From: a virus
Taxonomy: Duplodnaviria > Heunggongvirae > Uroviricota > Caudoviricetes
IMG/VR virus record: IMGVR_UViG_648276668_000008
Coordinates: 1 to 11,405 of that record
Strand: one strand, 5' to 3'
Length of the DNA: 11,405 nt
This document shows, one piece after another, positions 512 to 11,383 of the stretch. A program made the position numbers and the translations under genes. The notes under the pieces were generated by a model. It was not told the origin of the DNA, did no database searches, and worked only from the letters and a program-made list of their open reading frames with translations. Every line of letters starts with the position of its first letter. Positions within the stretch are counted from its first letter, which is position 1.

Positions 512-618
512 TTGGTTGATAACCCTTTACTTACAGATACTTAGCGATACTTTTCAATACCTTAGCATTTTTTAAAACTACTGTATAAATACCTGTATAT
601 ACCCCAAAATACTTCTTT

Positions 619-669
619 ACGGTATCCTATAGGTATCCTGGAACAGAACAAGCGATTTTCCAGGATACC
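619..669. promoter_or_regulatory. Candidate integrase arm-type binding sites: tandem GGTATCCT-ATA-GGTATCCT plus an inverted copy CCAGGATACC
   Basis: The 21-bp block ACGGTATCCTATAGGTATCCT (619-639) recurs exactly at 11324-11344 near the other end. GGTATCCTGG (632-641) has its inverted complement CCAGGATACC at 660-669, about 25 bp upstream of the int start. Confidence 0.5.
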
Positions 670-692
670 AGATCGCTTGGTGGGGTGTATGA

Positions 693-2126
693 GTGAAATT
701 ATTCAGATTCTCTAAAGTAAAAATTGCAGAACTGCCAACGCCGGAACATGGACAGGTCGAATATGGTGATACGGAGGTTAACGGGCTGCGTGTCCGTGTA
801 GGTTCGTCTGGTGTGAAAAGTTTCTGCATTTCCCGTAAGCGTAACGGAAAATTTATTCGTGCAACGCTGGGGCGTTTTCCTGATCTGAGCGTGGATAATG
901 CCAGGGCTAAAGCTATGGAACTCCTTGGCGAAGTCGCCACAACGGGGATAAATCCGAACATAGCAAAGCGCACTAACAACAAGGCCATGATAACGCTGAG
1001 TGAGGCGATTGACGCCTACGTAAAAAATCGTGGCCACCGCCTGAAACCCTCCACAGAAAAACAGTACCGCAGCATATTACAGAATTATTCCGGTGACTGG
1101 ATGGCCCATACCCTCGCCAGTATTTCCCGCGAACGGGTGGAACAACGGCATAAGGCCATCACTGATGGGGCTGTATGGTTCGGTGCTGATAAAACCACGT
1201 TACGGGCTGGGGTTGGTACAGGAAGCAAGGCACAGGCCGATTTATGGGCGCGTGCGCTGCGTGCCGTGTGTCGGTTTGCGCATGATCATTATCGTGATGA
1301 TGCGGGTAATACTCTTTTACCGGATCCGCCGACGCTGGTACTGAGCACTAAGCGCCAGTGGCACGGAACGGTAAGAAAAACGGAACGTATCCGCCTGCAT
1401 GATTTTTCGCGCTGGTTTGCTGCTGTAGCAGCTGTACGCGACCAGGGCGAACAGAAAAGGGATGATATAGCGGTGACGGTATGTGATGCCGTGGAAATGG
1501 CGCTTTTTACCGGACTGAGAAAATCAGAAATTTTTGGCCTTACGTGGGATCGCGTGAATATGGGCGGTCGTTTTTTCTGGATAGACACCACGAAAAACGG
1601 GGATCCGCTCGAATTGCCGATCACTGATACGTTGCGGGAGATGTTCCGCCGCCGGCTGAAAATAAAAAACGCTGATGATGTTCTGGTGTTTCCTGGTGTG
1701 AAGGGCGTTATTCAGGAGACACGGCACATCATAGACCGGATAAGCGCGGCTACCGTTTCAGAGTCGAACGATGAAATGCTCTCCCCTGTACCATTCAAAT
1801 GGCACGATGCGCGCCGGACGTTCGGAACGGTTGCCGAACTGGTGGGTGTGGGCAATTACATCCTCAAGCGCCTGATGAATCACCGTACTATGCGAAGTGC
1901 TGACGTAACGCAGGGGTATTTACATTTTGGTGCTGATGAACTGCTGGAGCCAGCGTCACGGATAGAACGGGCAATTCTGGAACATGCCGGGCTGGTGGAG
2001 AGTAAAAAATCTATTGATGCGCAATTGATGGCGGTCTTAAACAACCTAAGCGAAGAAGAAAAAAGGAAATTAATTTTTTCCTTATCTACAGATGAGTGTA
2101 ACCAGTTATGGCAGAAAGAAAAATAA
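693..2126 (+). CDS. int: Tyrosine recombinase, P4-type phage integrase
   Basis: 477-aa ORF from GTG 693 with GGTGGGG upstream. N-terminus GLRVRVGSSGVKSF...TLGRFPDLSV...GINPN fits the P4-integrase N-terminal pattern. Catalytic-domain motifs: LFTGLRKSE (box I Arg), WHDARRTF (HxxR), GYLH (Tyr). First gene inside the att repeat. Confidence 0.9.
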   Translation: MKLFRFSKVKIAELPTPEHGQVEYGDTEVNGLRVRVGSSGVKSFCISRKRNGKFIRATLGRFPDLSVDNARAKAMELLGEVATTGINPNIAKRTNNKAMITLSEAIDAYVKNRGHRLKPSTEKQYRSILQNYSGDWMAHTLASISRERVEQRHKAITDGAVWFGADKTTLRAGVGTGSKAQADLWARALRAVCRFAHDHYRDDAGNTLLPDPPTLVLSTKRQWHGTVRKTERIRLHDFSRWFAAVAAVRDQGEQKRDDIAVTVCDAVEMALFTGLRKSEIFGLTWDRVNMGGRFFWIDTTKNGDPLELPITDTLREMFRRRLKIKNADDVLVFPGVKGVIQETRHIIDRISAATVSESNDEMLSPVPFKWHDARRTFGTVAELVGVGNYILKRLMNHRTMRSADVTQGYLHFGADELLEPASRIERAILEHAGLVESKKSIDAQLMAVLNNLSEEEKRKLIFSLSTDECNQLWQKEK

Positions 2127-2845
2127 CAACCCCTGATTATATCATTCACCTTTTTATACGTGAGTTATTTACTTACGGTGATAAAGCCTCTGTTGTACGT
2201 ATAATTAAACGATGCTATGACGATAAAAATAACAAAGGGATAGACGGTTTTACAGAGCTTCTTACAAGTGTAGTTGCGTATTTTGCAAAATCAGCGAATG
2301 CTACAGAGGTTTTTCTTTATTTTATTGGCTTTACGACAGAAAATAAAAAGTTTAAACATCCAGAATTTTTTATCCATCAATTACAGCAAATGGATACTAG
2401 AAAAGAATCTTTTTTTCAGATTGAAAACTTGCCACCAGGCGCAATTAGTGCGTTAAATTCGGCAATCTCACTGTATGCAATAGGAATGAGAAATAATGCT
2501 GATAATCTTGTAAAACTTGGAATATACTTGTTAATTTCAGGGCTTTTTGAAGGTTATCATGTGGATTATGTTTGTGATGAAATATCAAAGCAAGCTATTG
2601 CTGAACATCAAAGAGAAAAAGCAAGCAAACCAAGAAATCATTATTACAATGAAGTTATGCACGTAATTAAATTAACGTGGGAAAAGTACCCTAAAGCCAG
2701 TAAAACAGGTTTATTGAACGAGCTTTCTGTTTACTATCATGGGAAAGTAAGTAAAAACACTCTGGATAAATGGATTAAAGAATCAGGAGCACAACCACCA
2801 AGACCTGATAAATATTCTTCGTTTGAACTTGTTCACCCCCAATAG
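2108..2845 (+). CDS. Hypothetical protein; AT-rich cargo gene with no recognisable family
   Basis: 245-aa ORF whose ATG at 2108 overlaps the int stop by 19 nt. Visibly lower GC than the flanking genes. Mostly hydrophilic, no motif I can name. Confidence 0.6.
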   Translation: MAERKITTPDYIIHLFIRELFTYGDKASVVRIIKRCYDDKNNKGIDGFTELLTSVVAYFAKSANATEVFLYFIGFTTENKKFKHPEFFIHQLQQMDTRKESFFQIENLPPGAISALNSAISLYAIGMRNNADNLVKLGIYLLISGLFEGYHVDYVCDEISKQAIAEHQREKASKPRNHYYNEVMHVIKLTWEKYPKASKTGLLNELSVYYHGKVSKNTLDKWIKESGAQPPRPDKYSSFELVHPQ

Positions 2846-2978
2846 CTGGCTAGTGTATCTTAATAGCTGGCTATTAAGGCTAAATAACTGGTAACCTCCC
2901 CACAGCAACTGGCTATTGGGCTAAAAACAAAATACCCATTGATTGATATTTATCACCGTTGTTACTTAGAAGTACACG

Positions 2979-3197
2979 GTGATAGATATGAATTTAAAGA
3001 AATCTGATTTATCAACTGACCGCCTTACACGTGCTGAAGCTGCTGCCTACCTTGGCGTTAACAATCAAACGCTGGCGAACTGGGCCTGTACTGGCAAGGT
3101 AAAAATCCCTTTCCATAAGCTGGGGCGCAAAGTGCTGTATATGCGCACTGATCTCGATGCTTATCTTGCATCCACTCGCAGAACGCAGACGGTGTAA
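2979..3197 (+). CDS. Excisionase/AlpA-type helix-turn-helix DNA-binding protein
   Basis: 72 aa. LTRAEAAAYLGVNNQTLANWACTGKVKIPFHKLGRKVLYMRTDLDAYL fits the excisionase-family HTH pattern. Start is GTG 2979 or ATG 2988. Confidence 0.8.
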   Translation: MIDMNLKKSDLSTDRLTRAEAAAYLGVNNQTLANWACTGKVKIPFHKLGRKVLYMRTDLDAYLASTRRTQTV

Positions 3198-3544
3198 GGG
3201 GGAGTGATGGCACATAAAACAAAGGCGACCGTAGAGGGCCGCCAGTGGCATAACACTAAACTTGAGCATATCCAGAATACCAGGTTGTTGGCTGGTGGGC
3301 AATGCTATCAGTCTGGCTCGATTCGCTGCCATGCCTGCAATGAGCGTATTTTCCTAGAATACTCTTTAAGGTACTTCTCAAGGATAAACGCACATGGTGC
3401 GAATCTCTCCGGTTCATGTTCGTTTACCGCATTTTTGCGTTGTTTTTTCTTGGATGAGGATAATTTCTTTAATGATTTGTCAGTCATCGTAGATACCTGT
3501 AACCCTGTGCGCCACAGTTCACCGCACCACGGCGCTGGTGATGG

Positions 3545-3724
3545 TTACTCCTGCTCTTTGGCCTTGCGACGCTGGCGGTATTCAACTTCTCGCTTTAATG
3601 CTGCTGTTACAAACTGCCCTGTACTTTCACCAGGCATTTTTACCGCCTCAACATTGTTCATAACTTCATGCGGAACCCTTGCCGCAACTGTTTGTGATTT
3701 TGCGTTTACTGCTTTTGTCGCCAT
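3545..3724 (-). CDS. Small ribbon-helix-helix (CopG/Arc-like) putative repressor, 59 aa; below the ORF-track cutoff
   Basis: Minus-strand ATG at 3724-3722 with AAGGGG 8 nt upstream; stop TAA at 3547-3545. Translation MATKAVNAKSQTVAARVPHEVMNNVEAVKMPGESTGQFVTAALKREVEYRQRRKAKEQE shows a strand / helix / G-x-S-T / helix pattern typical of RHH proteins. It abuts the palindromic operators. Confidence 0.6.
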   Translation of the reverse strand: MATKAVNAKSQTVAARVPHEVMNNVEAVKMPGESTGQFVTAALKREVEYRQRRKAKEQE

Positions 3725-3774
3725 GTTGTGTACCCCTTACAAAAAACAAATGCAGTATGCAGGAAAAAAAATAA

Positions 3775-3826
3775 GTGTTCAACACTTGACGTGTTTAACA
3801 CCTGGATTTAAATTGGTGTTCAACAC
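3775..3826. promoter_or_regulatory. Divergent promoter/operator region with three 11-bp palindromes GTGTT(C/T)AACAC
   Basis: Copies at 3775-3785, 3791-3801 and 3816-3826. A sigma70-like -35 TTGACG (3786-3791), 17-bp spacer and -10 TAAATT (3809-3814) read toward the Icd-like gene and are overlapped by the palindromes. Confidence 0.6.
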
Positions 3827-3923
3827 CTTGTTGATGCAAGGTGCAGAAACGACGAAACCCGGCAGTGCGCTAACACTAACCGGGCTTCTAACCACCAACG
3901 ATAGAAAGCGTATCGAGGTAGCT

Positions 3924-4127
3924 ATGAGAAATCATACCACACACCCGCAAGGGCGGGACTCGCACGACCTGAATAAATACATCTGGCGTTTTATCGCCCT
4001 GAGCACCGCACAACCGCGCGTGATTCACATCGTGGCCACCAGCGAACAGGAAGCACGCCAGCAATCCCCGGCTGGCTGCGTGATGGTATTCGCCGCCCGT
4101 ATTCGTCAGGGGGTGTGCCATGCCTGA
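3924..4127 (+). CDS. Icd-like small protein (P4-type host cell division inhibitor family)
   Basis: 67-aa ORF, ATG 3924 with GAGGTA upstream. KYIWRFIALSTAQPRVIHIVATSEQEARQQ...VMVFAARIRQG resembles Icd-like proteins of P4-type elements (from memory). It is the in-frame C-terminal end of the 307-aa track ORF 3204..4127, which I regard as spurious. Confidence 0.65.
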   Translation: MRNHTTHPQGRDSHDLNKYIWRFIALSTAQPRVIHIVATSEQEARQQSPAGCVMVFAARIRQGVCHA

Positions 4128-4440
4128 TATGTCAAATTACCAGTACCTGATTAATCCGCATTTTAACTGTGAGCATGATATTGCTAAAAAGGTTTATTCC
4201 GCTGCGGATGGGGCTACTGACAATATATCAATGGCTGTTGCGTCAATTGGTAGCCTGATGTGGCATGCGTCAGAAAATGAGGAATATGACGAAAAGGCCA
4301 TGCGCATTGATATGGGTAATATCGGTTTGTTACTGGCAATGCTTGGACATTTTGATATTTCGTTACGGTGCACCATTGAAAATGCCACAGATGCATTAAA
4401 TGCTATAAAGAAAGCGAATACTGATTCAAATCGGGGATAA
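4120..4440 (+). CDS. Hypothetical protein
   Basis: 106-aa ORF; AGGGGG upstream; start overlaps the Icd-like stop (ATGCCTGA). Acidic, no recognisable motif. Confidence 0.55.
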   Translation: MPDMSNYQYLINPHFNCEHDIAKKVYSAADGATDNISMAVASIGSLMWHASENEEYDEKAMRIDMGNIGLLLAMLGHFDISLRCTIENATDALNAIKKANTDSNRG

Positions 4441-4446
4441 ATAATC

Positions 4447-4746
4447 ATGAGAACGTATTTATCTGGCTTGACTGCCAGCGGTTATGCACACCCCCAAATT
4501 ATCCCCGGCGCTATTTATCTGGATAAGAACGGTAACAGAGTAACGGTAAAAGAACTGATGTTTGACCGTGTGTATTTTATTCGTGATGGCTATTCATTTC
4601 ATAGTTCGCTGAACGTGGAGATCTTTATTAGCAGATTCAGGCGGGAAATCCCGCTTTCCAGAAATAACCATGTGTCACGTGTGAATGTGGATAAAAAACT
4701 ACAGGAACTGAAAAACATGATTGCCGCGTGGAGAGAGCAGAAATGA
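4447..4746 (+). CDS. Hypothetical protein
   Basis: 99-aa ORF with GGGGAT upstream; its stop overlaps the primase ATG (ATGA at 4743-4746). Confidence 0.55.
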   Translation: MRTYLSGLTASGYAHPQIIPGAIYLDKNGNRVTVKELMFDRVYFIRDGYSFHSSLNVEIFISRFRREIPLSRNNHVSRVNVDKKLQELKNMIAAWREQK

Positions 4747-6560
4747 AAAAAGCGCCAAATTTAAAACACCAGCCACGTGACAAAATGACGGAAGTCATCA
4801 TTTTTGCGGGTAGTGATGCGTGGGCACATGCGAAGCAGTGGCAGGAACAGGACGGGCGACTGGCTGGCGATAACGTGCCTCCTGTCTGGCTTGGAGAGCA
4901 ACAACTTGCCGAACTGGACAACCTGCAAATCGTACCGGACGGACGCTATCGCGTGCGTCTCTATCAGGCGGGGTTATTGCGTCCGGGGCTTGTTAATACC
5001 ATCGGGCAGAAACTGGCAGCGGCAGGTGTCAGGGATGCTGATTATTACCCTGAAGGAATGCACAGCCAGAAACGGGAGAACTGGCGCGAATATCTGGAAC
5101 GTGAACGGGCAGAGCAGGCGGAAAAGAAAAAGGTAGTTGAACTGCCTGTAAAGAAAAAAGAGCGGGTAAAAGACGATAACGCTTCATCACTGGCGCTTAA
5201 CCAGATGGGAGCAAGTCAACGCGGCGAAGTTCTCCTGGCACATTATGGCGGTGAACTGGCGATTCATGCTGACTCTGACACTGTTCACCATTACAACGGC
5301 GTTGTATGGGAGCCAGTACAGGATAAAGAATTACAGCGAGCTATGGCACAGATTTTCATTGATGCGGAGATCAGCTATTCGCAGAACGCCATTAAATCGG
5401 CGGTCGATACCATGAAGTTAAGTTTGCCTGTAATGGGGAATACAGCCCGTAACCTGATTGGATTCAGTAACGGGGTATTTGATACCAGAACAGGTAATTT
5501 TCGGGGGCATAACAAAAACGACTGGTTGTTAATTGCCAGTGAATTACCTTTCAGCCCACCAGCAGAGGGGGAAACACTGGCAACACATGCGCCGAATTTC
5601 TGGAAGTGGTTACGCCGTTCGGTGGCTGAGAATGACCGCAAGGCAGATCGCGTACTGGCGGCATTATTCATGGTGCTGGCGAACCGGTACGACTGGCAGT
5701 TATTCATTGAGGTAACAGGGCCGGGGGGAAGTGGTAAAAGCGTGATGGCGGAGATTTGCACCATGCTGGCGGGTAAGGCTAATACAGTATCAGCAAGCAT
5801 GAAGGCGCTGGAAGATGCAAGGGAACGTGCGTTAGTGGTTGGCTTTTCGCTGATTATCATGCCGGATATGACCCGCTACGCTGGTGATGGGGCAGGGATT
5901 AAGGCCATTACAGGCGGTGACAAGGTGGCAATTGACCCGAAACACAAAGCCCCCTACTCAACGCGTATTCCGGCAGTAGTGCTGGCGGTTAACAATAACG
6001 CCATGTCATTCAGTGACCGCAGCGGGGGGATCTCACGTCGTCGGGTGATATTCAATTTTTCGGAAGTTGTACCGGAGAACGAACGCGATCCAATGCTGGC
6101 GGAAAAAATAGAAGGTGAGCTGGCGGTAGTGATTCGCCATCTGCTTACACGGTTTGCTGACCAGGACGAAGCCAGACGCCTGTTATATGAGCAGCAGAAA
6201 TCTGAAGAAGCACTGGCGATAAAGCGAGAGGGGGATTCGCTGGTGGACTTCTGCGGCTATCTCATGGCGTCGGTAATGTGTGATGGCCTGTTAGTGGGTA
6301 ATGCTGAAATTGTGCCATTCAGCCCACGCAGGTATCTCTATCATGCCTATCTGGCTTATATGAGGGCACATGGGTTTGGTAAACCTGTAACACTGACGCG
6401 CTTCGGTAAAGATATGCCGGGGGCAATGGCGGAATATGGCAGGGAGTATATGAAACGGAAAACGAAGCACGGTTTGCGTTCAAACGTGACACTGACGGAG
6501 GAATCAGAAGACTGGATGCCATCATGTGTATCGGTCACTAATGACGACAGCAAAAATTAA
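4743..6560 (+). CDS. P4-alpha-like primase / replication initiator (D5/SF3-type NTPase); the satellite pri-rep gene
   Basis: 605 aa from ATG 4743 (GGAGAG upstream, ATGA overlap with previous ORF); the frame is open from GTG 4728. Walker A VTGPGGSGKSV and a possible Walker B LIIMPD. Followed directly by the iteron origin. Confidence 0.8.
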   Translation: MKKAPNLKHQPRDKMTEVIIFAGSDAWAHAKQWQEQDGRLAGDNVPPVWLGEQQLAELDNLQIVPDGRYRVRLYQAGLLRPGLVNTIGQKLAAAGVRDADYYPEGMHSQKRENWREYLERERAEQAEKKKVVELPVKKKERVKDDNASSLALNQMGASQRGEVLLAHYGGELAIHADSDTVHHYNGVVWEPVQDKELQRAMAQIFIDAEISYSQNAIKSAVDTMKLSLPVMGNTARNLIGFSNGVFDTRTGNFRGHNKNDWLLIASELPFSPPAEGETLATHAPNFWKWLRRSVAENDRKADRVLAALFMVLANRYDWQLFIEVTGPGGSGKSVMAEICTMLAGKANTVSASMKALEDARERALVVGFSLIIMPDMTRYAGDGAGIKAITGGDKVAIDPKHKAPYSTRIPAVVLAVNNNAMSFSDRSGGISRRRVIFNFSEVVPENERDPMLAEKIEGELAVVIRHLLTRFADQDEARRLLYEQQKSEEALAIKREGDSLVDFCGYLMASVMCDGLLVGNAEIVPFSPRRYLYHAYLAYMRAHGFGKPVTLTRFGKDMPGAMAEYGREYMKRKTKHGLRSNVTLTEESEDWMPSCVSVTNDDSKN

Positions 6561-6572
6561 ACTTATGGAATA

Positions 6573-6797
6573 ACTGTTCACCACTGTTCACCCTGTCATA
6601 AATATCTTTTATATCAGTATATTATAGGGTGAACAGTTATTTATGAACTGTTCACCAAACTATTCACTGTTCACCTTTTTGATTGTTTATTGAGCTTCAA
6701 GGGTGAACAGTGGTGAACAGTTGGTGAATAGTTTTTGTGAAACTGTTCACCCCTTAACATTATGAATTAAAAGAGAAAATATCAAAAGGTGAACAGG
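6573..6797. repeat. Replication-origin-like iteron array: at least 9 copies of ACTGTTCACC in both orientations around an AT-rich spacer
   Basis: Forward copies start at 6573, 6583, 6647, 6666, 6742; reverse copies (GGTGAACAGT) at 6628, 6702, 6712, 6788; degenerate copies near 6658 and 6723. AT-rich stretch 6593-6627. Sits between the primase and the next gene. Confidence 0.8.
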
Positions 6798-6847
6798 TGA
6801 AGGGTTAAAACGCAAAAATTTTAATTTACTGCTGTGAGATAAAGCCT

Positions 6848-7093
6848 ATGACAGCGAAGCACACAAAAAAATCACAATCGCACGCCCTTGATTTGACGGA
6901 ACACTGGTTAAGGGTGTCGATAAAAATCATCGACCGCAACGCCGGGGAAGGATATGCGAAAGCACATCCCGAACTGATTAGCGCATTCATGACAACGGCA
7001 GCTGCAAACTTTGCCACGCTGACAGAACGGGAGATTGCCGAAGCGGAACAGGTGACAACCATCAACGTTAAAACTGGAGAGCAGACAGCATGA
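6848..7093 (+). CDS. Hypothetical protein
   Basis: 81-aa ORF; stop overlaps the start of the SSB-like gene (ATGA). Confidence 0.5.
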   Translation: MTAKHTKKSQSHALDLTEHWLRVSIKIIDRNAGEGYAKAHPELISAFMTTAAANFATLTEREIAEAEQVTTINVKTGEQTA

Positions 7094-7431
7094 CAGCACA
7101 GATAGCGGCTTACGGGCGGCTGGTGGCTGACCCGCAGTTAAAGACCACCAGCAAGGGTACACAAATGACGATGGCTAGTATGGCGGTCCCCCTTCCGTGC
7201 AGCCAGGCAGATGACGGAACGGCGACGATGTGGTTATCCGTCCTGGCGTTTGGCAGACAGGCCGACGCACTGGCAAAACACCACAAAGGCGAACTGGTGA
7301 GCGTGGCGGGTAACATGCAGGTAAGCCAGTGGACAGGCCAGAACGGCGAAACGCGGCAGGGCTGGCAGGTTATCGCAGACAGTGTAATCAGTGCCAGAAC
7401 GGCGCGACCGGGCGGCAAAAAAGGTCAATAG
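7090..7431 (+). CDS. Single-stranded DNA-binding protein-like (OB fold only, no acidic C-terminal tail)
   Basis: 113 aa. GRLVADPQLKTTSKG...WLSVLAFGRQAD...GELVSVAGNMQVSQWTGQNGETRQGWQVIADSV parallels E. coli SSB GNLGQDPEVRY...WHRVVLFGKLAE...[22 protein letters not shown] (from memory). Confidence 0.7.
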   Translation: MTAQIAAYGRLVADPQLKTTSKGTQMTMASMAVPLPCSQADDGTATMWLSVLAFGRQADALAKHHKGELVSVAGNMQVSQWTGQNGETRQGWQVIADSVISARTARPGGKKGQ

Positions 7432-7529
7432 GGCCAGGCTACTGACGCACTGAACAGGGCAAAACAACAGTCGGGGAATGATGATCCGTACGGCGATAAT
7501 ATACCGTTTTAAATTCTGCAAATAAAAAA

Positions 7530-7558
7530 ATGCCGGAAGAAAATAGATTTTCCGGCAT
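7530..7558 (-). terminator. Terminator-like hairpin with a U-run only on the minus-strand side
   Basis: 9-bp stem ATGCCGGAA (7530-7538) / TTCCGGCAT (7550-7558), 11-nt loop. On the minus strand it is followed by TTTTTTTATTT (complement of 7519-7529); on the plus strand no T-run follows. Confidence 0.4.
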
Positions 7559-7729
7559 GCTACATAAATCCCGACCAAAGGAAGTAAATACATTAACACG
7601 AATTATCAGCACTGAAGTTGTCACGGCAGATTTTATACAACATTGCACTTGGTTGCATGTATTCGCATAGCAAATATCGGTGATAGCATATATCCACAAT
7701 TATTTTTAATGAATGCAAAGAGGATGCGT

Positions 7730-8770
7730 ATGGTTGATTTATATTCGCCTGCCCAGCTTGTGCAGGTGGCTAATGCTGAAGATGTGCAAAAAAAATTAAA
7801 TGCGTTGTTTACCAGTTTGTTTTTCACTCGCTCGGTAATGTTTGAATCGAGAGACATTATTCTTGATACGATCGACGATCCAAATATCCCGATCGCGGCG
7901 TTTTGCTCTCCTATGGTGGGCAGTAAGGTTTCACGAGATGAGGGATACGAATCAAAAACAATTCGCCCTGGCTATATGAAACCGAAAAGCAGCATTGATC
8001 CAAATAAGTTAGCTGTGCGCCCTGCTGGTGTGTCACCTGAGCAATACAATGCTTTTGGGGCGCGTAATATTAAAGTTAAACAGGCGATTGTAAATCAGGC
8101 TAAAGCTATTCGTGCACGTATTGAATGGCTTGCTGTTCAGGCAATCACAACGGGGAAAAATATCATTGAGGGCGATGGTATTGAACGTTATGAGCTGGAC
8201 TGGAATATAAAACCACAAAATATTATCACGCAGTCTGGCGGTGCTGAGTGGTCAGGTAAGGATAAAGAAACTTTTGATCCAAATGATGATATTGAGAGCT
8301 ACGCAGAATTTAGTGAGGGCGTCACTAATATCATCATTATGGGCGGTAATGTATGGAAGAAATACCGTTCATTCAGAGCGATAAAAGAGGCTCTGGATAC
8401 CCGTCGTGGTTCTAATTCCGAACTGGAAACGGCCCTTAAAGACCTTGGTGATTCGGTGAGTTTTAAAGGGTATATGGGCGATGTTGCGATTGTTGTTTAC
8501 AGCGGACGTTATACCGACGAGGACGGAACTGAAAAACATTTCCTTGATCCTGATTTGATGGTGCTTGGCAATACGGCTCTTCAGGGGATTGTCGCCTATG
8601 GCGGTATTCAGGATCCGGAGCTAATCCGAATGGGGCTGACTAAAGCCGAACTTGCACCGAAAAACTATATTGTGCCTGGTGATCCGGCTATTGAGTACGT
8701 ACAAACGCACTCTGCACCACAGCCAATACCGGCCCGCATCAATCGTTTTGTTACCGTTCGCATTGGCTAA
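7730..8770 (+). CDS. Major capsid protein, lambda gpE-like
   Basis: 346 aa from ATG 7730 (AAGAGG 6 nt upstream; frame open from 7643). Blocks ITQSGGAEWSGKDKETFDPNDDIESYA and LDTRRGSNSELETALKDLGDSVSFKGYMGDVAIVVYSGRY parallel lambda gpE (ITQSGGTEWSKRDKSTYDPTDDIEAYA; LDTRRGSNSELETAVKDLGKAVSYKGMYGDVAIVVYSGQY). Length is similar to gpE. Confidence 0.9.
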   Translation: MVDLYSPAQLVQVANAEDVQKKLNALFTSLFFTRSVMFESRDIILDTIDDPNIPIAAFCSPMVGSKVSRDEGYESKTIRPGYMKPKSSIDPNKLAVRPAGVSPEQYNAFGARNIKVKQAIVNQAKAIRARIEWLAVQAITTGKNIIEGDGIERYELDWNIKPQNIITQSGGAEWSGKDKETFDPNDDIESYAEFSEGVTNIIIMGGNVWKKYRSFRAIKEALDTRRGSNSELETALKDLGDSVSFKGYMGDVAIVVYSGRYTDEDGTEKHFLDPDLMVLGNTALQGIVAYGGIQDPELIRMGLTKAELAPKNYIVPGDPAIEYVQTHSAPQPIPARINRFVTVRIG

Positions 8771-8779
8771 GGGGGAGCA

Positions 8780-9121
8780 ATGGCTACTCATTACACTGAA
8801 CTCATGTCTGGCACTGAAGCACTGGTTACTACGCTGGGGATATTTTCAGCCAATAAAGGGATAATACCTGCGTTTACGCCACTGATGCAGGAAGATGCAA
8901 CTGGTGCGCTAGTGGTATGGGATGGAACGAGCGCAGGCAAAGCGGTTTATGTTTCCGCTGTACAAATCGACACAGCGAAAAAAACACAGGCACAGGTTTA
9001 TAAGACAGGTGTTTTAAATGTTGATGCTCTGAACTGGCCTGAGTCTGTAAAAGAACTGTCGGCAAAGGTTGCCGCGTTTGTTGGCTCAGGTATTTCTGTT
9101 CAGCCGCTGGCTCGTGTGTAA
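8780..9121 (+). CDS. Head decoration protein, lambda gpD-like
   Basis: 113 aa, AAGGGGGAG upstream. TPLMQEDATGALVVWDGTSAGKAV...YKTGVLNVDALNWPE...AAFVGSGISVQ parallels lambda gpD ([24 protein letters not shown]...YKSG...LWPE...AFAGTAISIV). Immediately follows the gpE-like gene. Confidence 0.85.
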   Translation: MATHYTELMSGTEALVTTLGIFSANKGIIPAFTPLMQEDATGALVVWDGTSAGKAVYVSAVQIDTAKKTQAQVYKTGVLNVDALNWPESVKELSAKVAAFVGSGISVQPLARV

Positions 9122-9132
9122 AGGGGGATACA

Positions 9133-9516
9133 ATGCAGAATCATTACAATGACCTTAAGCCAATTGCCGAAATGATGTATCCGGATCCAGCAGTAGAGGA
9201 ATTAAAGGCTATTGCTGACAAAATGCGTTTAAGTGAACGCCTTGTTGATATGAATCAGGTGATGGAAATTACTACCCTTAGCCGTCGCACATTGCTAAAC
9301 CTTGAGGCTCGCGGAGAGTTCCCCGAACGCGTACAGGTTACGGAAGGGCGTAAGGCCTGGTATTTAAGCGAAGTGATCGACTGGATAAACAATATTCCTC
9401 GCGCTTCTGAATATTGCCGCGTACCTGTCCCAAAAAAGCCAGATGCGGCGCTATGCCTCAAGATTGAGCGTGTACGCCGCAATGCACGGGATGGTCGCTA
9501 TAAGTTGATTGGTTGA
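9133..9516 (+). CDS. AlpA-family transcriptional regulator (HTH) with an N-terminal extension
   Basis: 127 aa, AAGGGGGA upstream. VDMNQVMEITTLSRRTLLNLEARGEFPERVQVTEGRKAWYLSEVIDWI fits the AlpA-type HTH pattern. Confidence 0.8.
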   Translation: MQNHYNDLKPIAEMMYPDPAVEELKAIADKMRLSERLVDMNQVMEITTLSRRTLLNLEARGEFPERVQVTEGRKAWYLSEVIDWINNIPRASEYCRVPVPKKPDAALCLKIERVRRNARDGRYKLIG

Positions 9517-9572
9517 TGAAATTAGGGCCCGTTCTGGCTGGCGGGTCCTTTCCGGCGATCCGGTAGGCTACG

Positions 9573-9614
9573 GGGCGGCGACCTCGCGGGTTTTCGCTAT
9601 TTATGAGCATTTTC
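9573..9614. other. cos site: lambda-type cosN (12-nt cohesive end GGGCGGCGACCT) with adjacent conserved sequence
   Basis: 9573-9606 matches the left end of phage lambda as I recall it for 34 of 34 nt (GGGCGGCGACCTCGCGGGTTTTCGCTATTTATGA), and 40 of 42 through 9614, then diverges. It lies ~120 bp upstream of the Nu1-like gene, the same arrangement as lambda cos-Nu1. Confidence 0.8.
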
Positions 9615-9732
9615 AGGGGGCTGGTGGTGGTTTTGTTGTTCGCTCTATCTCTATGAATAAGAAGAGAAAAATACAATCAATACACCAACCTGAAACAGTA
9701 ATTAAGTTGTGGTATCAATGAAATTGCACCTG

Positions 9733-10260
9733 ATGAACAAAAAAAACATGGCAAAAAGTTGCCGTGTAAGCGCCACTGCGTTTGATAAGTGGGGAGTGAT
9801 TCCCGTCGAGCGTAAGGGCCGTGAGGCATTCTATGATGTTGCCAGTGTAATAGATAATCGGGTTAACAATGCAATTAGCCAGATTACAAACGAAACGGGC
9901 GATATTGATGACGATGAACTTTTACGCGTCAGGATCAGATTACTGACAGCACAGGCAGAGGCGCAGGAGCTTAAAAACGAGCGCGAACGCGGCGACGTTA
10001 TTGATACAGAGTTTTGTATGTATGTTCTTTCCAAACTGGCGAGTCAGATTTCATCTATCATGGACAGCCTGCCGCTTACCATGCAAAGGCGCTTCCCACA
10101 GATGACTCCGGCTATGCTGGATGGACTTAAAAAGGAAGTGGCTAAAGCCTGTAATGCCAGTGCCGGAGTTGACGACAACCTCCCGCAGATACTGGCTGAT
10201 TACCTGATGGAAACTACCGGAAATGTGCCGGATAAGTTGCAGCCGAATAAAGACAAGTAA
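9733..10260 (+). CDS. Terminase small subunit, lambda Nu1-like
   Basis: 175 aa from ATG 9733 (frame open from GTG 9709). RLLTAQAEAQELKNERERGDVIDTEFCMYVLSKLASQISSIMDSLPLTMQRRFPQ parallels lambda Nu1 RLTRAQADAQELKNARDSAEVVETAFCTFVLSRIAGEIASILDGLPLSVQRRFPE. The N-terminal region (NKKNMAKSCRVSATAFDKW) also aligns with the Nu1 N-terminus. Confidence 0.85.
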   Translation: MNKKNMAKSCRVSATAFDKWGVIPVERKGREAFYDVASVIDNRVNNAISQITNETGDIDDDELLRVRIRLLTAQAEAQELKNERERGDVIDTEFCMYVLSKLASQISSIMDSLPLTMQRRFPQMTPAMLDGLKKEVAKACNASAGVDDNLPQILADYLMETTGNVPDKLQPNKDK

Positions 10261-10271
10261 CGTAGCGCACT

Positions 10272-10556
10272 ATGACAGAATCTGAATTGCTGGGATTAAT
10301 CCGCCGCGTTACCGGAATCAAACAACCATCAAGCAAACAGGAGGCCACGCAGCCGGACAGCGTGATAGCCGAAAATTACGCGCGTGTGGTGGCTGAGATG
10401 ATGCGCCGTGACGGTATCGAGCTTAACGGCGTGGATATGCGCGACATACGGATCAGAGTCCTTGAGTTGCTGGCATACCGTCGCCGTTCTCAACAACGGA
10501 GGGAGAGCGCGAAAAATACTTACCAGTGGAGGAAGCCGGAACGGTTGCGGCGGTAG
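10272..10556 (+). CDS. Hypothetical basic protein downstream of the small terminase gene; possible packaging accessory
   Basis: 94-aa ORF with an Arg-rich C-terminus and weak RBS. Sits where a large terminase would be expected, but is far too small to be one. Confidence 0.5.
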   Translation: MTESELLGLIRRVTGIKQPSSKQEATQPDSVIAENYARVVAEMMRRDGIELNGVDMRDIRIRVLELLAYRRRSQQRRESAKNTYQWRKPERLRR

Positions 10557-11345
10557 ATTCCTGATATTCAGGAAAACCACGAATCTGTGGGGTTTACTGG
10601 CGCGGTTACGGCGGTGACACGCACCGAGGCAGAACAATTACCGTAGGTTAAAGCGACAGTATTCACACCAAAGGCAGAAATTAGCGGTTAACGTAACTGA
10701 CTGATATTTTCGGGAACAGCCAACGGCTGAGGCCGGAGCTATAAAAATAGCTTTGGGTACAGTCCTCAGTTTTGAGGGATGTTAACCAACTGAATAATAA
10801 GCAAAGCTCAAAATTGAGTTTTGTATCTGCCTGAGTTATTTCTGTGCTAACTTGCTGATATTCCCGATAACGCAAAATTGCGTTGGCTGGTGGGTGAGTT
10901 GCAGATCTGCAACTCGACCATGAAATTACGGAAACTACCCGTAGTTTGGGTAGTAAGAGCAACACCCAGATTTTGGGGCTTACTCGCGATACCCAAATAC
11001 AGGGGATCGGTGGAAGAAATATCGTTTCTCATATGTGAGTACCGAGGGCGGAATTCCGCCTTCGGTTACTTATTGTGCTCATGCACAGGGAGGGGCGGGT
11101 CAAATCTCTGTACCCTGACGTCTTCCGGACTGCCAGCCCCATCGATTTTTTATACCCGCGAAAAATGAAAAACGCTTCACGCTGGTGGGTCTGATGCCGA
11201 TATGGGGATCCACATAACGGATTATCCGTGATCATCGACCAGCTATCATGTCGGATAGTTAAAGTTTCATGACAGGTATGATGTTGCGTAACTTGTTGTT
11301 TTTATACCTGCTTATACTCTGTCACGGTATCCTATAGGTATCCTA

Positions 11346-11383
11346 GAAAAAACGAAGGGGTCACGCTGTTAACGTAACCCCTT
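11346..11383 (-). terminator. Rho-independent terminator for the minus-strand tRNA
   Basis: Minus-strand hairpin AAGGGGT-(15 nt)-ACCCCTT (11355-11383) followed by CGTTTTTTCT; begins 8 nt downstream of the tRNA CCA end. Confidence 0.65.

Follow-up and report, generated by a model that had tools for sequence, protein, structure and literature searches.

Among phage-inducible chromosomal islands (PICIs), the packaging system closest to the one considered here is that of EcCICFT073, which has lambda-like cosQ and cosN sequences and a different cosB that is recognized by a heterocomplex of Rpp and the helper small terminase subunit (TerS) (Fillol-Salom et al., PMC6092414; PMC6739421). Rpp-type cos sites were analyzed further by Murialdo and Feiss (PMC9026076), and the combination of a conserved cosQ/cosN with a different cosB is already published for PICIs of this type (2018–2019; PMC6092414, PMC6739421, PMC9026076). 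TerS-type relatives have been catalogued: the 2018 paper noted TerS-encoding islands in strains IHE3034 and 18098 that were not mobilized by the resident prophages (PMC6092414), SatelliteFinder lists the small terminase as a core PICI component (PMC10085698), and helper-embedded PICIs have been described by the Williams laboratory, with no discussion there of satellite terS (PMC10111431). Here we analyze an 11,405-nt stretch of viral DNA (IMG/VR record IMGVR_UViG_648276668_000008; hereafter the window), which holds a complete Escherichia coli phage satellite of the PICI type, ~10.7 kb long and with a single cos, and we propose that positions 9541–9717 are probably the functional cos of a satellite dependent on lambda-type helpers, where the large terminase subunit (TerL) of the helper cuts and the satellite's own TerS recognizes. 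In the literature searched we found no account of the cosB of TerS-type islands, its N15-like origin, or its helpers, nor of a complete Nu1-type TerS as the specificity protein, an N15/O55-derived R3/R2 cosB, strict cosB-TerS linkage, lambda as the helper of close relatives, or a modular cassette.

A lambda-type cosQ-cosN block joined to an N15-like cosB

The window was anchored on the circularized lambda sequence (NC_001416) and identities were counted ungapped from the nick, with bp 1 at position 9573. The features of the cos region and the adjoining gene are as follows.

9543–9549, + strand: cosQ heptamer GGGTCCT, 30 nt before the predicted top-strand nick, with sequence and spacing as in lambda
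9573–9584, + strand: cosN cohesive-end 12-mer GGGCGGCGACCT, identical to lambda bp 1–12
9585–9609, + strand: conserved cosN right flank CGCGGGTTTTCGCTATTTATGAGCA, bp 13–37, the first 22 nt identical to lambda
9622–9640, + strand: R3-position element TGGTGGTGGTTTTGTTGTT, bp 50–68, with little or no variation among 59 distinct family sequences
9641–9677, no strand: A+T-rich spacer separating the R3-like element from the R2-like one, at the lambda I1 position, variable in the family
9678–9694, − strand: R2-position element, inverted, CAATACACCAACCTGAA (reverse complement TTCAGGTTGGTGTATTG), bp 106–122
9704–9715, + strand: weak R1-like element AAGTTGTGGTAT, degenerate in the window
9718–10260, + strand: small terminase gene of the Nu1 family (PF07471), 180 aa, directly downstream of cos and with no TerL gene after it

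The lambda cos match spans 9541–9617. Within it the 12-mer GGGCGGCGACCT is exact and occurs once in the window; on its own it is not significant (0.6 chance matches are expected at two or fewer mismatches). To the left of the nick 27 of 33 bases are those of lambda, including the GGGTCCT heptamer, which is the cosQ of lambda in the Feiss-laboratory literature. A first-pass annotation of this DNA had stated that the lambda cohesive end and ~30 nt to its right are almost unchanged, and comparison with the actual lambda sequence agrees (12/12, and 28/30 over bp 13–42); the match on the left was absent from that description. Nicks at 9572/9573 (top strand) and 9584/9585 (bottom strand) would be expected from this alignment. 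In a blastn search of 50,697 phage records ~100 lambda-type phages match only window ~9541–9619 (90–92% identity, E down to 4e-24). When 5,426 complete E. coli genomes were searched with window 9520–9760 as the query, the cosQ-cosN core was present in 4,678 and at least 80% of the query was held by 533. An intermediate class of E. coli loci matches window 9541–9691 at about 81% and includes a full lambdoid prophage of an O55:H7 strain, with the gene order TerS-TerL-W-portal-protease-D-E, as well as a cos site of an Rpp-type PICI.

To the right of this block the sequence was said in the first-pass annotation to depart completely. Relative to lambda this holds: from bp 43 to the TerS start (bp 43–145) only 39 of 103 bases match ungapped, and local alignment with the lambda cosB is at shuffle level (z=1.4). 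It does not hold for the cosB of the O55:H7 lambdoid prophage, which has an N15-like TerS and aligns with the same stretch at z=15 and about 75–80% identity; one cos site of an Rpp-type PICI also aligns significantly. The window cosB is not unique; it is a derivative of the N15/O55-prophage type.

The individual elements have the same affinities. The R3-position element holds the window's only exact GGTGGTGGT (9623–9631), in register with GGTTGTTGTTT of the O55 prophage, which carries GGTTGTTGT three times (two direct, one inverted), the first copy sharing the core of N15 R3. Scanning mutagenesis places N15 R3 at bp 48–60 (Murialdo and Feiss, PMC9026076), which in the N15 record reads GAGGTTGTTGTTT; the R3 core starts at bp 50 in N15 and at bp 51 in the window, an offset of 1 nt. 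The R2-like element is related to the R3-like element and lies about 60 bp beyond it. It contains ACACCAACCTGAA, which is invariant in the family, and its counterpart in the O55 prophage cosB is the inverted CAACAACC repeat. At the R1-like position relatives including EcCIIHE3034 have AAGTTGGTGTATTA, which when inverted matches the R2-like element at 12 of 14 positions. The region thus has the layout of a cosB, with an R3-like element ~50–65 bp from the nick, an inverted R2-like element and a weak R1, in a sequence that is not that of lambda. No further GGTGGTGGT-like site corresponding to the remote rR2 that N15 has, alongside its single R3, inside terS (about 200 bp away) was found in 9718–10260; the inverted R2-like element lies upstream instead. 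A repeat search of 9560–9800 gave no direct repeats and a single inverted pair, 9628–9641 / 9735–9748 (TGGTTTTGTTGTTC / GAACAAAAAAAACA, 86% complementary), which pairs the 3' half of the R3-like element with TerS codons 6–10. Both arms are conserved in the family, and because the second encodes a conserved NKK motif the pair may be a coding coincidence.

TerS proteins 84–100% identical to that of the window are encoded at 80 IMG/VR loci. An alignment of 59 distinct cos-terS sequences has five conserved islands – cosQ, the nick regions, bp 13–37, the R3-like element and the R2-like element – and variable stretches at bp −14 to −5, bp 6–12, bp 38–48 and bp 96–105; GGGTCC is nearly invariant, and bp 13–37 is the best-conserved stretch.

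We note separately that in the Rpp-type cos upstream of rpp (L007, minus strand, bp 52–63; L numbers are our locus handles) the R3-equivalent reads CACCACCACCAC, the reverse complement of the TerS-type R3 core GGTGGTGGTG, which could be a coincidence or reflect a shared origin in inverted orientation.

A linked small terminase, lambda-type helpers of relatives and the readings of the locus

Open reading frame (ORF) listing and Pfam scans of the window reveal no TerL, portal, protease, tail or lysis genes in the element, and the only terminase gene is that of the 180-residue TerS (an alternative start at 9733 would give 175 aa; the RefSeq start in relatives corresponds to 9718). It matches Pfam PF07471 Phage_Nu1 (E=1.1e-24; score 87 bits, cutoff 30), is 35% identical to lambda Nu1 over its full length (BLASTP E=1e-35), and is closer to N15 gp1 (48%) and the O55 prophage TerS (47%). 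The identity is distributed unevenly.

DNA-binding domain: 60% to N15/O55, 42% to lambda
Central region: 52–55% to N15/O55, 57% to lambda
Last ~40 residues: 32–42% to N15/O55, 29% to lambda

In lambda it is the last ~40 residues of TerS that bind TerL, and the satellite tail keeps an LPxxLxxY(L/I) motif common to the lambda, N15 and O55 proteins. A profile from which lambda was left out matches, over residues 6–84, lambda TerS 6HN7_B (E=5e-6) and 1J9I, the DNA-binding domain of gpNu1 (E=0.05), and a PDB search with the single TerS sequence gave nothing relevant. An AlphaFold2 model from a 17-sequence alignment is poor (pLDDT 66, pTM 0.33; order beta-alpha-alpha-beta-beta-alpha) and Foldseek found no PDB match to it with E<0.9, so the fold assignment rests on the sequence profile. 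The lambda Nu1 residues I11-F12-G13, part of the dimer contact of the DNA-binding domain (PMC9026076), align with S-C-R in the satellite protein. We considered TerS and the AlpA-like ORF as candidates for Rpp and rejected both: no window ORF matches RppC in PDB, the AlpA-like ORF matched only an AlpA regulator, and TerS has no detectable similarity (BLASTP E=6.6) to the Rpp homologue of the NCTC86 PICI, itself verified against RppC (PDB 6HLK, E=2.4e-31).

Within the family there is almost no variation in TerS residues 1–45, among them SATAFDKWGV, the counterpart of the lambda recognition helix in the alignment. At 83 loci the ORF is intact, and its conservation resembles that produced by purifying selection. 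The C-terminal tail varies and has two alleles, which show no correlation with helper type (lambda versus O55). In a search of 5.8 billion proteins there is a gap, among the 120 matches listed, between the E. coli family (76–98% identical) and a ~60% group from Enterobacter and Citrobacter. The latter are also satellites, and they keep GGTGGTGGTGTTGTT at the same position, an (A/V)TAFDKWGV helix and the R3 core GGTGGTGGT, with the rest of cosB diverged and TerS only 60% identical. Phages with an SVQAFDKWGV helix carry GGTTGTTGT in place of GGTGGTGGT. No full-size phage having an R3 of the GGTGGTGGT type or a TerS above 48% identity was found in INPHARED, in IMG/VR or among those 120 matches, and all examined loci with this cosB-TerS cassette are satellites.

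For a wider comparison, 110 dereplicated cos loci of phages and satellites, a biased sample in that they were gathered by TerS similarity or cosN pattern, were classified by R3 type and by the protein encoded downstream.

R3 GGTGGTGGT, this TerS downstream: 46 loci and 1 poly-G variant
Lambda R3, Nu1 (90% identity or more) downstream: 41 loci
Lambda R3, Nu1-like protein (72%) downstream: 1 locus
R3 CATGTCGG, Nu1-like protein (53–83%) downstream: 10 loci
R3 GGTTGTTGT, O55-type TerS downstream: 2 loci
Lambda R3, no TerS (satellites): 2 loci

The type of cosB and the type of TerS are linked in these loci with zero exceptions. As side observations, the closest cos relative (99.2%; L175, E. coli 51489) has an IS1 at 3248–3945 between the AlpA-like gene and cos, and in enterohaemorrhagic O145 and O157:H7 strains the TerS-type cassette is part of PICIs that lie next to phoQ and have a PerC-family regulator gene (L176, L177).

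Helpers were identified by tblastn of lambda and O55-prophage late proteins on the 30–60 kb viral contigs that contain many of the relatives. Codon ~80 of gene E is the insertion point of satellites whose TerS is 98% identical to that of the window, with flanking E, FI, FII, Z, U and V 97–100% identical to those of lambda (all flanking late proteins are 100% identical in L014/L142), and those with TerS 84–89% identical are inserted at codon ~273 of a lambda-type B or in an O55-type B.

Gene E, codon ~80: L011–L020, L030, L114, L119, L123, L142
Lambda-type B, codon ~273: L041, L066–L072
O55-type B: L048, L075
Helper-embedded satellites of Enterobacter/Citrobacter: L178–L183

On contig IMGVR_UViG_2923302340_000009 the helper's lambda Nu1 (99.4%), gpA (99.4%) and lambda cosB lie ~13 kb from the different cassette of the embedded satellite. 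These data point to a lambda-type phage as the helper of the close relatives, one whose cosN module matches that of the satellite and whose cosB and TerS do not.

We propose that the helper large terminase would nick the helper-type cosQ-cosN module with about 25 nt of its right flank, since the satellite encodes no TerL; that the winged helix-turn-helix N-terminal domain of the satellite TerS would bind the R3-like, the inverted R2-like and the weak third element; that its C-terminal part would bring the helper TerL to cosN by a direct contact; and that satellite concatemers would thereby be chosen for packaging over helper DNA. Both roles had been suggested in the first-pass annotation, and both gain support at the level of sequence: cutting by a helper large terminase from the missing TerL gene, the lambda-type cosQ-cosN block and the relatives inside lambda-type prophages, and recognition by the satellite's own small subunit from the cosB-TerS linkage and from the invariance of the R3 element and the recognition helix, both of which persist in the Enterobacter/Citrobacter relatives with a diverged flanking cos. 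Several observations weigh on the other side. The spacer at 9641–9677 has no match to the integration host factor consensus WATCAANNNNTTR at one or fewer mismatches (I1 is also lacking in the N15 cosB; PMC9026076); the repeat search missed the R1-like element, which is weak in the window; EcCIIHE3034 was not mobilized by its resident prophages (PMC6092414); and the linkage comes from loci chosen by TerS or cosN. The R3 core differs from the N15/O55 type at 2+2 positions only and N15 TerS reportedly accepts the lambda R3 despite its being very different (PMC9026076), so the difference in R3 alone is no proof of a separate specificity. Tail identity is low (29% to lambda Nu1, 42% to the O55 TerS) and the same TerS allele occurs in satellites lying within lambda-type and O55-type portal genes (L041, L048), so that a specific direct fit of TerS to TerL is not evident.

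These last two points, the poorly conserved tail and the single allele with two helper lineages, make an indirect, Rpp-like route a serious rival, even if we judge it rather unlikely. The satellite TerS would read the satellite cosB but be unable to recruit TerL by itself, and would form mixed oligomers with the helper TerS, the C-terminal tail of which would bring in TerL; diversion of the helper TerS from the phage cos would produce interference. In sibling PICIs the gene at this position encodes Rpp, which acts by such a route and has a strict requirement for the helper TerS (PMC6739421; PMC9026076), and the central oligomerization region is the most lambda-Nu1-like part of the satellite protein (57%), as against 29% for the TerL-binding tail. 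However, the satellite TerS is full length and has the LPxxLxxY(L/I) tail, whereas Rpp is 139–154 aa and tailless, the two proteins have no detectable similarity, and the Nu1 dimer-contact residues I11-F12-G13 are replaced by S-C-R. It is less probable still that there is no private specificity at all, with a cos-terS cassette captured from an N15/O55-type lambdoid phage and usable by a helper TerS of that type, so that the satellite TerS is redundant and the site acts as a helper cos, as in P4 and the cos-type Staphylococcus aureus pathogenicity islands (cos-SaPIs). The z=15 alignment with the O55-type prophage cosB, the 60% identity of the DNA-binding domain to the N15/O55 type, the relatives embedded in O55-type prophages (L048, L075) and the near-identical satellites that use a plain helper cos (lambda cosB and no TerS) speak for such a capture, but all examined loci with the GGTGGTGGT R3 and its TerS are satellites, with no full-size phage among INPHARED, IMG/VR and the 120 listed protein matches, what separates this R3 from that of phages is fixed across genera, and most embedded relatives sit in lambda-type helpers with an entirely different cosB and Nu1. 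Least probable by a wide distance is that cos and terS are remnants of a defective prophage with no packaging function. Inducing the resident prophages did not lead to transfer of EcCIIHE3034 or EcCI18098, both of which bear this cassette (PMC6092414), and one close relative has the IS1 between its AlpA-like gene and cos; yet such decay would sit poorly with an intact TerS ORF in 83 loci, the site-specific conservation footprint in non-coding cos DNA, and the presence of the cassette in 533 of 5,426 complete E. coli genomes and in other genera. We retain direct action of the satellite TerS with a helper TerL as the probable reading.

Cassette exchange, second cos sites and the rest of the satellite

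Other packaging cassettes are found on satellites whose primase, capsid, decoration and AlpA genes are 97–99.7% identical to those of the window. L005 (12080–12290) and L138 (~8100–8590) have a lambda-type cosB with R3, R2 and R1 and no terS, and L111 has a lambda-type cosB with a 72% Nu1-like TerS. Identical cosQ-side blocks are common to satellites and to phage-type cos loci with a lambda cosB, and in every case the satellite-phage similarity stops just after TTTATGA, placing the boundary of cassette exchange at cos bp ~38. Because near-identical backbones carry different cassettes and similarity ends at this point, the cosQ-cosN block appears to behave as a constant joint, and cosB with its reader as an exchangeable cassette.

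The cohesive ends are themselves polymorphic. Positions 6–12 of cosN vary among relatives, with variants that lambda-type phages also have. Satellites with near-identical TerS and cosB have GGGCGGCGACCT, GGGCGTCAGGCG, GGGCGGAAGGCG, GGGCGGCTGACG or GGGCGGCAGACG, and GGGCGGAAGGCG and GGGCGTCAGGCG are common to satellites and lambda-type phages. An IMG/VR scan for two of the 12-mer variants returned mostly phages with Nu1 93–99% and gpA 99–100% identical to lambda. In one helper-satellite composite the helper and satellite 12-mers differ (L105 versus L071). Many TerS-type relatives (EcCIIHE3034, L053 and about 30 others) have in addition a further cos, in inverted orientation and ~190 bp downstream of terS, which is not present in the window. 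Its cosB is of another type, with CATGTCGG.../GAAACGACA repeats that we take to be 21-like, and the arrangement recalls cos1/cos2 of EcCICFT073. In the NCTC86 Rpp-type PICI, an inverted cos copy carries N15/O55-type GGTTGTTGT repeats.

Polymorphic cohesive ends: satellites L009–L021, L030, L037, L050 (cos ~3841 of locus); phage loci L088–L174
Second inverted cos: L186 (EcCIIHE3034) ~9870–9881, minus strand; L053 ~4708

A bolder reading, which we hold tentatively and with more doubt than belief, is that cosQ-cosN serves as a universal joint for at least four swappable cassettes (GGTGGTGGT-cosB with this TerS, lambda cosB with a Nu1-like TerS, lambda cosB alone, and Rpp with its own cosB), that recombination at the cut cos spreads the 12-mer variants between helper and satellite, and that the satellite TerS alone drives both lambda gpA and an O55-type TerL. 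If true, this would make the satellite TerS the counterpart of the SaPI TerS in cos packaging, compatible with an unusually broad range of TerL proteins.

The remainder of the element, as assigned from the ORF listing and Pfam matches, is as follows.

598–11357, + strand: whole satellite, between 55-nt attachment-site-like (att-like) direct repeats at 598–652 and 11303–11357
693–2126: tyrosine integrase
4728–6560: D5/primase-helicase
7090–7431: single-stranded DNA-binding protein (SSB)
Ending at 8770: lambda-E-like major capsid protein
8780–9121: lambda-D-like decoration protein
9133–9516: AlpA-like regulator
Between the AlpA-like and TerS genes: ~200-nt non-coding stretch containing cos
After the TerS gene: 94-aa ORF

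The 55-nt repeats are 75% identical with a core CACGGTATCCTATAGGTATCCT and give an element length of 10,705 bp. The genes are compact and all in one direction, and the element has the features of Gram-negative PICIs: int, an alpA-like regulator, a primase-replicase, unidirectional genes, ~10 kb, att repeats, and no tail or lysis genes. The layout is that of RefSeq-annotated relatives and of Gram-negative PICIs. We rejected a capsid-forming PICI, as the element is without portal, protease and TerL and its only structural homologues are the E-like capsid and D-like decoration proteins, and also a P4-like satellite, since there are no P4 sid, psu or delta genes. In relatives (L185) the chromosomal site of the window's own element adjoins a tRNA-Ile gene, and its integrase differs from those of the helper-embedded relatives. 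A 245-aa ORF (2108–2845) overlapping the end of the integrase gene has no Pfam match and is a hypothetical protein in the annotation of relatives; it lies where PICIs often have accessory genes. The ORFs at 9509–9721 (+) and 9458–9676 (−) that cross cos have neither a Pfam match nor annotation, and we regard them as spurious. An Rfam scan of the window found no RNA family, and 9400–10400 contains no promoter-like site and a single terminator-like hairpin, at chance level. Four units come to 42.8 kb, inside the lambda headful range, and would fill a lambda head; alternatively, the satellite E-like and D-like proteins may build small capsids.

Significance and comparison with known systems

If the proposed reading is correct, this cassette would be a second, independent solution to the packaging of a lambda-dependent satellite in place of its helper, the known one being the Rpp adaptor, which needs the helper TerS; in the present case the role of Rpp would fall to a complete small terminase that has a private recognition site. 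About one in ten complete E. coli genomes has the cassette, among them those of O157:H7 and O145 strains and of the extraintestinal pathogenic strain IHE3034, and so it bears on the spread of islands. It also offers natural material for an old question of lambda packaging: what residues and base pairs decide TerS-cosB specificity, and how tolerant the TerS-TerL contact is. In this case the N15-like TerS and R3 show a few fixed differences and apparently function with lambda gpA.

The nearest known systems differ from this one in instructive ways. Rpp-type PICIs such as EcCICFT073 belong to the same satellite family and share the order int, primase, SSB, E-like, D-like, cos and specificity gene, the lambda-like cosQ/cosN spacing and a cosB that is not that of the helper (PMC6739421; PMC9026076). 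In contrast, the specificity protein here is not Rpp but a full-length Nu1-family TerS of 180 aa with a tail, the window cosB is repeated and N15-like whereas Rpp-type cos sites are without repeated R sequences according to Murialdo and Feiss, and there is one cos site in the window rather than two. EcCIIHE3034 (NC_017628, 920272–930825) is much closer, with 158 of 180 TerS residues identical, the same R3-like and R2-like elements and an equal cosN-terS distance, but it has another integrase, another integration site (cspD-clpS) and, downstream of terS, the second inverted cos, whose cosB is different; EcCI18098, listed with it as a TerS-encoding PICI, has the same cassette. The lambdoid specificity classes (lambda, 21, phi80 and N15) have a shared cosN, and class-specific cosB R sequences, with R3 ~50 bp from the nick and R2 inverted, that the N-terminal helix-turn-helix of the cognate TerS reads (PMC9026076). 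Here, however, a cosB/TerS class resides on a TerL-less satellite, its TerS would have to work with the TerL of another genome, and its GGTGGTGGT occurs in no full-size phage examined. The pac-type SaPIs likewise use their own TerS to redirect the helper TerL to satellite DNA (PMC6739421; PMC6092414), but with headful (pac) packaging, an unrelated TerS family and an extra inhibitor, Ppi, whereas the present system is cos-type with a conserved helper cutting site. Finally, satellites with the complete helper cos (P4, cos-SaPIs such as SaPIbov5, and 11capE) have a helper-compatible cosN and depend on the helper terminase, a strategy that L005 and L138 also use; the satellite in the window differs in that its cosB is not that of the lambda helper and a cognate TerS is present.

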